Origin: a virus
Lineage: Duplodnaviria > Caudoviricetes
DNA: 64,000 bases
Reading direction: 5' to 3' (one strand)
IMG/VR virus record: IMGVR_UViG_3300042558_004043
Below the pieces are notes generated by a model. The model did no database searches and was not told the origin of the DNA. It saw only the letters and a program-made list of their open reading frames with translations. The position numbers were made by a program, and so were the translations under genes. Position 1 is the stretch's first letter; each line of letters starts with the position of its first letter. Positions 58,541 through 60,636 of the stretch are shown here, one piece after another.

Positions 58541-60406
58541 ATGGGAGCATTATTAGAATCAGGTCTTGTTGGTAACATCGGTCTTAAGCACCTTAAAGTT
58601 ATCAAAGAAGATACTATCAACAAATGGGACAAATTAGGGTTCCTTGAAGGTCTTAAAGGCCACCTAAAAGAAAATGTAGCGCAGTTATATGAAAACCAAG
58701 CGTCACATTTGATTAACGAAGCTACTTCTGACGGTTCTTCAGGTTCATTTGAAACTGTTGTATTCCCAATCGTTAGACGTGTATTCTCTAAGTTACTTGC
58801 TAATGAAATCGTATCAGTACAAGCTATGAACTTACCAATCGGTAAGTTGTTCTACTTCGTACCAAAGATTCAGGCTTACAATGCGGGTAATCCATACTTT
58901 GACCCACAATTACCATCAAATAACTACGATGGTTCTTCAGGTGGTCACTTGAGTCCAGTTGGGTCACCAGGTGCTTATCCTGGTTCACCGACATCAGGGT
59001 ATACAACTGGTAACCAATTCCAAAAGAACCTTTATGATTTGTTTTATGAAGGTAATGAAGGTCAATTAGACCCTCCAGGTTTGTTTGACTATTCAAAAGG
59101 ACAGTGGTCTGCAGTTACTGTACCCGGTGACGTTCAAGTTTGGTCAAATGGTTCATTGGTTAACTATGGTGGCGAATTTGATGGTTTGAACGTTAGAAAA
59201 GTTATCGTTAAAATTAGCGGTTTTGCTAATGTTGGTAATGGTAAATTAATTGGACCTGATGGTAATGAATACGATTCAGAAACTTTCTTGTCTGATTTAA
59301 GAGTATTTGCAACAAATGATTTCGTTGACGCAGAAAGTCCTTGTTCAGTAGTATTTGACGATGCTGGAGACCCAAATTCATTATTGTTTAGAGTTGTGAC
59401 TCAACAATATGGTCAAGGTATCGTTAGCGGATTAAACACTCGCACTCCAGTTCCATGGCCAGCACAAGGTAACGGAGGTTCATTCAACGATATTTGTAGC
59501 CCAACAGGTGACATTTATTTGGAAGTTGACCTTTCTTGTCCTGTTTGTGCAACTTGTTCAGGTACCACTTTAGATGGTTATACAGGTACGACTATTGATA
59601 CTTTAGGTTTAACTAACTTAAGTGCAGTATTCAGACGTTATAAGAACTTAGAATTCGAAGACCAAATCGGTGAAGTTTCTTTCGACCTTGAGTCTGTAAC
59701 TGTTTCTGTAACTGAAAGAAAGTTAAGAGCTCAGTGGTCTCCAGAACTTGCTCAAGACGTTGCGGCATTCCACAACATTGACGCTGAAGCTGAATTGACG
59801 GCTTTATTGTCAGAGCAAGTAGCTGCGGAAATTGACCGTGAAATTCTTCGTGACCTTCGTAAGGGTGCCGCTTGGAACTTACGTTGGGACTACAACGGTT
59901 GGAGAAGAATTTCTCAAACTACTTCTTACACTCAGAAAGATTGGAACCAAACATTGATTACTGCAATCAACCAATTGTCAGCTCAAATCCACAAGTCAAC
60001 TCTTCGTGGTGGTGCTAACTGGATTGTTGTATCATCTGAGGTTTCTGCAATCTTTGATGACTTGGAATATTTCCACGTTTCAAATGCGTCTCCTGAGCAA
60101 GACCAATACAACATGGGTATTGAAAGAGTGGGTACTTTAGCTGGTCGTTACCAGGTTTATCGTGACCCATACTTCCCACCGAACCAAATATTGATTGGTC
60201 ACAAAGGTACATCGTTACTTGATACTGGTTACATTTACGCACCGTATGTACCACTTCAATTAACTCCAACTATGTACAATCCATTCAACTTCACACCAAT
60301 CAAAGGTATCATGACACGTTACGCGAAGAAGATGGTCAACAACCGCTTCTATGGCAGAATTACAATTGATGGTGTTCGTACATTTGATTTAAGAGAATTG
60401 AGATAA
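58541..60406 (+). CDS. major capsid protein (T4 gp23-like)
   Basis: IVSVQAMNLPIG, RKLRAQWSPELAQD, AEIDREI, YAPYVPL, GIMTRYA. Confidence 0.97.
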   Translation: MGALLESGLVGNIGLKHLKVIKEDTINKWDKLGFLEGLKGHLKENVAQLYENQASHLINEATSDGSSGSFETVVFPIVRRVFSKLLANEIVSVQAMNLPIGKLFYFVPKIQAYNAGNPYFDPQLPSNNYDGSSGGHLSPVGSPGAYPGSPTSGYTTGNQFQKNLYDLFYEGNEGQLDPPGLFDYSKGQWSAVTVPGDVQVWSNGSLVNYGGEFDGLNVRKVIVKISGFANVGNGKLIGPDGNEYDSETFLSDLRVFATNDFVDAESPCSVVFDDAGDPNSLLFRVVTQQYGQGIVSGLNTRTPVPWPAQGNGGSFNDICSPTGDIYLEVDLSCPVCATCSGTTLDGYTGTTIDTLGLTNLSAVFRRYKNLEFEDQIGEVSFDLESVTVSVTERKLRAQWSPELAQDVAAFHNIDAEAELTALLSEQVAAEIDREILRDLRKGAAWNLRWDYNGWRRISQTTSYTQKDWNQTLITAINQLSAQIHKSTLRGGANWIVVSSEVSAIFDDLEYFHVSNASPEQDQYNMGIERVGTLAGRYQVYRDPYFPPNQILIGHKGTSLLDTGYIYAPYVPLQLTPTMYNPFNFTPIKGIMTRYAKKMVNNRFYGRITIDGVRTFDLRELR

Positions 60407-60425: not shown

Positions 60426-60454
60426 AAAAAGGTCAGAGAAATCTGACCTTTTTT
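60426..60454 (+). terminator. intrinsic terminator after MCP
   Basis: AAAAAGGTCAGA-GAAA-TCTGACCTTTTT. Confidence 0.88.
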
Positions 60455-60462
60455 ATTTTATA

Positions 60463-60502
60463 AAGGTGAGACTTGTATCTTAATCGTCTTCCATCTCACC
60501 TT
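60463..60502 (-). other. hairpin motif duplicated at 38212-38251
   Basis: 20-nt identity ACGATTAAGATACAAGTCTC inside different but paired outer stems. Confidence 0.7.
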
Positions 60503-60636
60503 ATTGATTAGAATTGTTTCACTCTAATCTTATTTTAATATGTAGACGAAACCTCATTATGATTCGACATAAATTAGTTTGATAGGACAGGCATCAAACT
60601 TAAACAACGATATTTATATGTAAATGTTTTTTACAT

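Follow-up and report, generated by a model that had tools for sequence, protein, structure and literature searches.

The two copies of a 20-nt motif that are found in the 64-kb stretch of viral DNA analysed here (the window) lie in hairpins that are members of a widespread, modular RNA hairpin family of Bacteroidota phages. The family is uncatalogued in Rfam, and combines a near-invariant loop, RGRN-AACGAUU-N-AGAUACAA, with stems that covary freely. An earlier note on this DNA had described the two copies as a recurring small RNA or protein-binding element, and this description now extends to a family of well over a hundred. As judged from the sequence, the element functions as RNA on the strand carrying the motif, which is the plus strand at 38.2 kb (copy A) and the minus strand at 60.5 kb (copy B), and its loop is most likely a docking site, still putative, for a trans-acting factor.

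The 20-mer common to both sites, ACGATTAAGATACAAGTCTC, is present in the window at 38227–38246 (+) and 60468–60487 (−), and no third copy was found there even when allowing up to three mismatches. Chance can be excluded, since 0.01 matches are expected in the window and none of 100 shuffles gave two; the 20 nt that the earlier note had found in common between the two sites, 22 kb apart, are thus present beyond chance, and both hairpin sequences that it quoted are exact. When the search was extended to the full record and to relatives, as had been proposed, the parent record (IMGVR_UViG_3300042558_004043, 81.7 kb, 28 % complete according to CheckV) held the same two copies and no others, and relatives carried many homologous hairpins. 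Two covariance models, R1 and R2, run on the window with filters off, accepted only copy A (66.7 bits with R1, 53.9 bits with R2) and copy B (67.7 and 54.0 bits).

Both copies correspond to the loop plus the 3′ arm of a hairpin with a stem of 10–12 bp and a loop of 20 nt. The hairpin of copy A (38212–38251, +) has the stem GAUUUGAGAC/GUCUCGAAUC, with one U·G pair, and the loop GGAC-AACGAUUAAGAUACAA, and is followed by an A-run and no terminator; that of copy B (H2; 60464–60501, −) has the stem AGGUGAGAU/GUCUCACCU and the loop GGAA-GACGAUUAAGAUACAA, and is followed on its 3′ side by UUUAUAAAAU and then by a separate canonical terminator. The motif strands fold with −14.6 (z-score −4.9) and −13.4 kcal/mol (z-score −4.1) at 38.2 and 60.5 kb, respectively, whereas the complementary strands fold more weakly (−7.5 and −11.0 kcal/mol) because the U·G pair turns into A·C. 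A pseudoknot between a 3′ tail (ATCTTAA) and the loop (TTAAGAT) was discarded as a family feature; it occurs in copy A and locus L019, and is absent from copy B and most members.

The canonical form of the family comprises a stem of ca. 4–12 bp, unrelated in sequence among members, a linker of 4 nt (RGRN), the core (A)ACGAUU-N-AGAUAC(AA) and, immediately after it, the 3′ arm. The G of the linker is invariant in our alignment of 33 diverse canonical hairpins (alignment A2). The search patterns account in part for the conservation of the loop, and the core ACGAUU-N-AGAUAC, in which N is any base, is 97–100 % conserved also in second hairpins, which the search pattern did not force. The earlier note had seen a covariation-like pattern in the stems of the two copies, which differ and still pair, and covariation was indeed found in both close and diverse homologues. 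Among ten close homologues, half of the 10 stem pairs were changed on both sides, with 90 % of the cells paired; stems are swapped, for instance, between GGUGAGA/UCUCACC and GGUGGGU/GCCCACC or ACCCACC, and compensatory variants of the copy B stem occur in L016, L033, L019 and L229. In alignment A2 all nine pairs covary, and 93 % of the cells are paired, versus 57 % in shuffles; since only hairpins with six or more paired positions entered this alignment, pairing of the inner pairs is partly built in, which does not apply to the diversity of pair types. The covariation value of the same 33 hairpins was 0.99, compared to 0.27 in shuffles, and sliding one partner by one column reduced pairing to ca. 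50 %. Additionally, counting with a symmetric rule over 95 unique hairpins gave 96 G·T versus 37 A·C on the motif strand, and this excess of G·U over A·C argues that the element acts as RNA.

The region at 38.2 kb contains three tandem promoters of the Bacteroidota type (TTTG, 19–23 nt, TAnnTTTG), read from the sequence and spaced by ca. 100 nt. The second of them, P2 (38175–38206, +), is a predicted promoter of the Bacteroidota sigma-A type (TTTG, 20 nt, TATATTTG) with its −7 box at 38199–38206; copy A begins 5 nt later, at about +1, and a P2-type junction of promoter and hairpin is kept in ca. 15 related contigs. The third promoter, P3 (−7 box at 38297–38304, +), is followed by a plain hairpin (38313–38328) and a boxA (GTTCTTTGAAAAG, 38332–38344), forming an rrn-like leader situated directly before the large non-coding RNA GOLLD, whose conserved 3′ domain occupies positions 38789–39182 (+; Rfam RF02032, 321 bits). 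A tRNA-Met gene (39200–39273, +; ARAGORN) also lies 3′ of the three promoters, and there is a tmRNA on the opposite strand. The P2 unit with copy A is situated ca. 85 nt upstream of the P3 promoter-hairpin-boxA leader, such that copy A and boxA are parted by ca. 80 nt plus a promoter. Since P2 precedes copy A, and P3 and the plain hairpin precede boxA, copy A is not part of the boxA leader, and it is the 5′-terminal hairpin of the predicted P2 transcript, outside the boxA leader proper. Neither is it inside the modelled GOLLD structure, since both another promoter and boxA lie between the two. The motif had been assigned to the leader of the large RNA, which stands in that copy A is a promoter-proximal hairpin upstream of GOLLD, and fails in that this hairpin starts a separate P2 transcript and does not belong to the boxA leader.

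The first promoter, P1 (−7 box at 38097–38104, +), also precedes a hairpin (38110–38154, +), GAUUUGAC...GUUAAAUC, which starts with GAUUUGA as in copy A and whose loop contains GAUGAAAGAUAC. This hairpin gave 9.7 bits with R1, was absent from the R2 list and has a fold z-score of −1.2, and we did not count it as a third family member; locus L022 has a deletion within it. The P1 unit is possibly a decayed duplicate of the promoter-plus-hairpin unit, with its hairpin as a degenerate paralogue of the motif hairpin. A different arrangement is found in L147, where the motif hairpin takes the place of the plain hairpin in two units, each time with a gap of 2 nt to boxA; the second of these units immediately precedes GOLLD. 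Between these two promoter-hairpin-boxA units on the minus strand of L147 (ca. 250 nt), that is, after the first motif-hairpin-boxA leader and before the GOLLD leader, there is a structured-looking, ORF-free RNA of ca. 200 nt with no Rfam match. In the window, an ORF that precedes the non-coding RNA operon by 1.2 kb (36486–36938, +) matches the cyclic-phosphate-processing receiver domain (cREC_REC, PF20274, 1.7e-19), which is a domain tied to RNA repair systems.

Copy B is part of a small-RNA unit convergent with the gene for a Gp23-type major capsid protein (58541–60406, +; PF07068, 6e-74; phrog_138, 2e-66), which has genes for a non-specific nuclease and an S8 protease on its 3′ side. The capsid gene (+) and the small-RNA unit (−) have in common a predicted bidirectional intrinsic terminator (60426–60453), consisting of an A-run, a GGUCAGA/UCUGACC stem and a T-run. 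Two further hairpins reported in the earlier note, GATTAGA/TCTAATC (60506–60529) and AGTTTGAT/ATCAAACT (60576–60600), are present on the minus strand, 5′ of the motif hairpin. The former, H1 (GAUUAGAGU/AUUCUAAUC, loop GAAACA), is a homologue of the middle hairpin in the three-hairpin small RNAs of related phages, and its stem changes are compensated in L016, L019, L102, L229 and L276. The latter (AGUUUGAU/AUCAAACU) is without the motif loop and sits where relatives carry the first motif hairpin; it overlaps a TAAGTTTG box at 60595–60602, and the pairing of the corresponding hairpin is kept via G·U changes on the minus strand of L222. No canonical promoter adjoins H1 or is found directly upstream of the copy B unit of the window. 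The full three-hairpin version is present in L102 and L276, and the arrangement promoter-H1-H2 in L016 and L229; the unit of the window has only one motif hairpin, and copy B is the last hairpin, within the 3′ two-thirds (a remnant), of a predicted multi-hairpin small RNA. Conservation extends to the middle hairpin (GGUURGR...YCYAAYC; loop of the CGAAAcAA type) in the window and in L016, L045, L058, L102, L229 and L276, with compensatory changes in its stem, and a loop akin to its own, GAAACAAUAAU, occurs inside GOLLD at ca. 39130–39150.

The complete close relatives G001 and G002 are devoid of copy B and both keep the copy on the GOLLD side, which indicates that copy B is accessory in this clade and dispensable; by sequence, it could be decaying in the window. 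In G001, a 136-aa ORF of unknown function (L253:1798–2208), flanked by the terminator of the capsid gene and by the nuclease gene, replaces positions 60455–60591 of the window. This is an indel polymorphism among close relatives, with the 136-aa ORF in G001 versus H1-H2 in the window, and the more distant L016 has both. Where a gp23 homologue was found within 1.5 kb, all 44 loci were convergent with the capsid gene and none was co-directional, and an ORF of 137–155 aa without known function often lies between the small-RNA unit and gp23. The copy at 60.5 kb had been expected to be antisense to the capsid gene, and this orientation is conserved in those 44 loci. A link between capsid and GOLLD expression, which the earlier note had also suggested, is unsupported: G001 and G002 keep the GOLLD-side copy only, and the capsid-side copy is also present in many T4-like contigs that were fetched regardless of GOLLD, part of which were checked for GOLLD.

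Family hairpins are predicted to be transcribed from host-type sigma-A (TAnnTTTG) promoters, and 59 of the 108 unique hairpins start 0–10 nt after a TAnnTTTG box. A boxA is present within 150 nt downstream of 27 hairpins and abuts the hairpin (within 20 nt) in two. Intrinsic terminators have a short-loop, G+C-rich stem and a U-run; a T-run follows 17 of the 108 hairpins, but their loop is 20 nt long. They are found in three formats. One of them, to which copy A belongs, is that of the 5′-terminal leader hairpin of non-coding RNA operons (GOLLD, tRNA arrays). Another consists of mini-units with a promoter, a single hairpin, a U-run and a second promoter ca. 45–55 nt further on; huge phages contain comparable units of promoter, hairpin, T-run, next promoter and tRNA array. 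The third format comprises small RNAs convergent to gp23 with two to four motif hairpins, the last of which is often the terminator, and typically shows the order promoter, motif hairpin, middle hairpin (GAAAcAA loop), and motif hairpin with U-run.

An exact search of IMG/VR with a 16-mer yielded 35 matches, ca. 24 of which are homologous hairpins in two contexts, and a scan of viral contigs with AACGATTNAGATACAA produced at least 120 matches, most of them hairpins of canonical form among the matches listed. At least ca. 150 uncultivated phage contigs bear the hairpin. One or more motif hairpins were located on 164 fetched viral or metagenome loci (a few loci being fetched twice), with two to four of them on 67 loci, and 51 contigs have two copies 25–55 nt apart. 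Three copies are present in the 635-kb megaphage LR745206 and one in a 385-kb phage; a search of both with the Gp23-type capsid protein of the window retrieved only trivial matches, indicating that the motif crosses phage lineages. Among the phages in GenBank, no cultured phage matched a typical small RNA of the family. A stricter pattern, admitting only linkers of the form xGGN, was scanned against 185,579 species, each represented by a single genome, and gave 68 matches, ca. 6 of them true hairpins, all from Bacteroidota MAG contigs; we estimate from the size of the database that ca. 70 matches would occur by chance, and a mimic of CRISPR repeats or of another host RNA was rejected on this basis. 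Among the Bacteroidota MAG copies examined, one adjoins an integrase and one or two adjoin a resolvase, and the surroundings of one Flavobacteriales copy offered no hint of a mobile-element or chromosomal location. In a Saprospira MAG (L207:6400–6500), a canonical hairpin (11-bp stem, followed by a T-run) is located at the end of a gene of chromosomal appearance, which encodes an S15 peptidase bearing a T9SS sorting domain; the module is therefore not exclusive to phage DNA.

Two groups of sequence matches from MAG contigs lie outside the family. In MAG contigs from gut Clostridiales and others (L153, L167, L169, L171, L179, L191–L193, L204, L206, L210, L217–L220), the 16-mer is contained within another conserved element, ATTACAAAAYGGTAACGATTTAGATACAAYGRTATTGTACAAG...AATAATTGTCAAGTAGACA, that has no phage-type hairpin and is probably an unrelated mobile-element or regulatory region. 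In Prevotella and relatives (L154, L159, L173–L176, L181–L190, L199, L211–L213), the 19-mer GGCAACGATTAAGATACAA is the coding start ATG GCA ACG ATT AAG ATA CAA of a gene whose product begins with MATIKIQQ and which we take to be rpmD, for ribosomal protein L30; these matches were rejected as homologues and represent one independent coincidence.

Comparison of both hairpin regions of the window with Rfam 15, at E-values of up to 10, returned noise matches only. Scans at the gathering thresholds gave no match in five small-RNA loci and, in five operon loci, identified GOLLD, tmRNA and tRNA only, with nothing on the hairpin. Our search of the literature likewise retrieved nothing on the motif.

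We favour, with about an even chance of being right, that this modular RNA hairpin uses its fixed loop as a docking site for a trans factor, most likely a protein and probably encoded by the host. The long, invariant loop, the freely changing stems, the presence of one to four copies per RNA and the extreme 5′ position all argue for loop-specific docking. A protein would be the most likely partner because no complementary RNA site stands out and because the free central N is unsuited to a continuous duplex, and it would probably be host-encoded, given that phages of unrelated lineages, with only the host phylum in common, carry this loop. The small RNAs would capture or titrate the factor early in infection, and the leader copies would tag nascent non-coding transcripts with it. 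The hairpin had previously been viewed as a protein-binding or small-RNA element, and both parts agree with our results, in that docking is the most likely reading of the sequence and small-RNA units are seen, with two to four hairpins in 67 loci. The genes that recur beside the hairpins are gp23, ORFs without assigned function, and those for NUDIX and VanY-like proteins; among the flanking genes (a 155-aa ORF, a 490-aa ORF, NUDIX, VanY-like) there was no RNA-binding candidate.

Several hairpins with a shared loop in one promoter-to-terminator unit are also typical of sponge RNAs such as CsrB, RsmY and RsmZ. The likeness lies in one loop borne on several unrelated stems, up to four per RNA in the family, and in that the 5′ part of the loop is often GGA; nevertheless, there is no sequence relation, and the conserved part spans 15 nt here versus A(N)GGA in the sponges. 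Like the RNA anti-CRISPRs formed by solitary repeat units, the family includes short phage RNAs that have their own promoter and consist of a repeating hairpin, in some cases as tandem copies, but a conserved loop on a free stem is the reverse of what occurs in CRISPR repeats. No CRISPR-like array carrying the motif was found in the genomes of the 185,579 species, scanned with xGGN linkers.

The main rival to a docking site for a trans factor, possible although doubtful, is a cis-acting processivity element resembling nut or put, where the nascent hairpin, alone or bound by a factor, would modify its own RNA polymerase and allow it to read through terminators, including the U-run of the hairpin itself, and so reach the non-coding RNA operon. 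More than half of the hairpins are at about +1 of a promoter, and such promoter-proximal copies fit this role as well as they fit docking in trans. The array units of promoter, hairpin, T-run, promoter and tRNA of the huge phages are also in its favour, and the layout of PR′-tR′ of phage lambda and of PL-put of phage HK022 resembles these promoter-hairpin-T-run-promoter units. Moreover, as in the lambda nut boxB and the rrn boxB-boxA leader, the hairpins are promoter-proximal, defined by their loop and present on both strands within a single phage genome, and those of L147 occupy the boxB position immediately upstream of boxA, in one case ahead of GOLLD. However, boxB has a GNRA-like pentaloop instead of a 20-nt loop, and most family copies are away from boxA, with 2 of the 108 abutting it and a full promoter parting copy A from the boxA leader in the window. 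Many family hairpins are, unlike nut, parts of free small RNAs or terminators, and we know of no N-like protein for them; Pfam scans of 18 ORFs from the window identified neither NusG nor an antiterminator candidate. With the lambda PR′ 6S RNA/tR′ and HK022 put, the family shares a short, promoter-proximal structured transcript, sometimes self-terminated, upstream of a larger unit, but neither sequence nor structural similarity; here a second promoter follows the hairpin, and read-through is hypothetical. Read-through on the capsid side would yield only antisense capsid RNA, and several small RNAs with two to four copies end in strong terminators, which fits a free RNA product better.

The loop could instead be the seed of a base-pairing small RNA directed at a conserved RNA of the host or the phage, such as the start region of an mRNA or a stable RNA, which we consider unlikely. 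A long, conserved single-stranded loop on a stable hairpin, with a strong promoter and a terminator, is typical of the seed of a trans-acting small RNA, and the small RNAs have a fixed position beside the capsid operon; against this, the free N at the centre of the loop sits poorly with an uninterrupted duplex, and matches to the complement of the 16-mer in the window, with up to three mismatches, are at the level of chance (6 found, 5.9 expected). In five phage genomes, all exact matches to the complement of the core are the hairpins themselves, except for one chance match to the motif core in a coding region, and with no complementary site standing out in the window or in these genomes the search for an antisense target ended without a candidate. 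As a special case of docking, and a rather improbable one, the hairpin could be a decoy of the universally conserved 790 loop of 16S rRNA helix 24 that captures a factor of the ribosome platform (IF3, KsgA, uS11 or the phage's own bS21). When N is skipped, the loop reads GAUU-AGAUAC, a ten-nt identity, in a hairpin loop, with GAUUAGAUAC of the 16S rRNA (Pedobacter rrn operon), the only free position of the loop being an exact insertion of 1 nt relative to 16S, and mimicry of rrn promoters and of boxA is already a feature of this phage. Nevertheless, the identity is marginally beyond chance, as 262 of 5000 shuffled motifs (5 %) match the rrn operon at least as well, the closing stem of helix 24 (CAGG/CCUG) is not reproduced, and we found no literature on such mimics. 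If true, an early flood of mini-RNAs, multi-hairpin RNAs and leader tags would redirect translation or ribosome assembly. We give hardly any credence to an element acting at the DNA level, whether as inverted recombination sites around an invertible segment of 22 kb or as a protein-binding site in the tandem-promoter region. The two copies are indeed mutually inverted at that distance, and some MAG copies adjoin a resolvase or integrase, but no recombinase was seen near either copy of the window, and the invertible segment was rejected because the complete relatives G001 and G002 have a single copy. Other observations also speak against a DNA element: the stems covary instead of being conserved, the excess of G·T over A·C is strand-specific, the positions of the copies, at +1 of promoters and ahead of T-runs, are narrowly constrained, and tandem copies within 40–70 nt are co-oriented.

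Almost nothing is known of RNA-level control in Bacteroidota phages, which are abundant in lakes, oceans and guts and whose hosts, to our knowledge, are without the classic Hfq/CsrA toolkit, CsrA being generally missing. A 20-nt loop that is invariant across T4-like, jumbo and 635-kb phages points to a conserved molecular partner, which could be fished directly with a 40-nt bait. Finding this partner would provide a first handle on the large non-coding RNA output of these phages (GOLLD, tRNA arrays), and the family itself would add a new entry to RNA catalogues as well as a compact and portable RNA tag for Bacteroidota.
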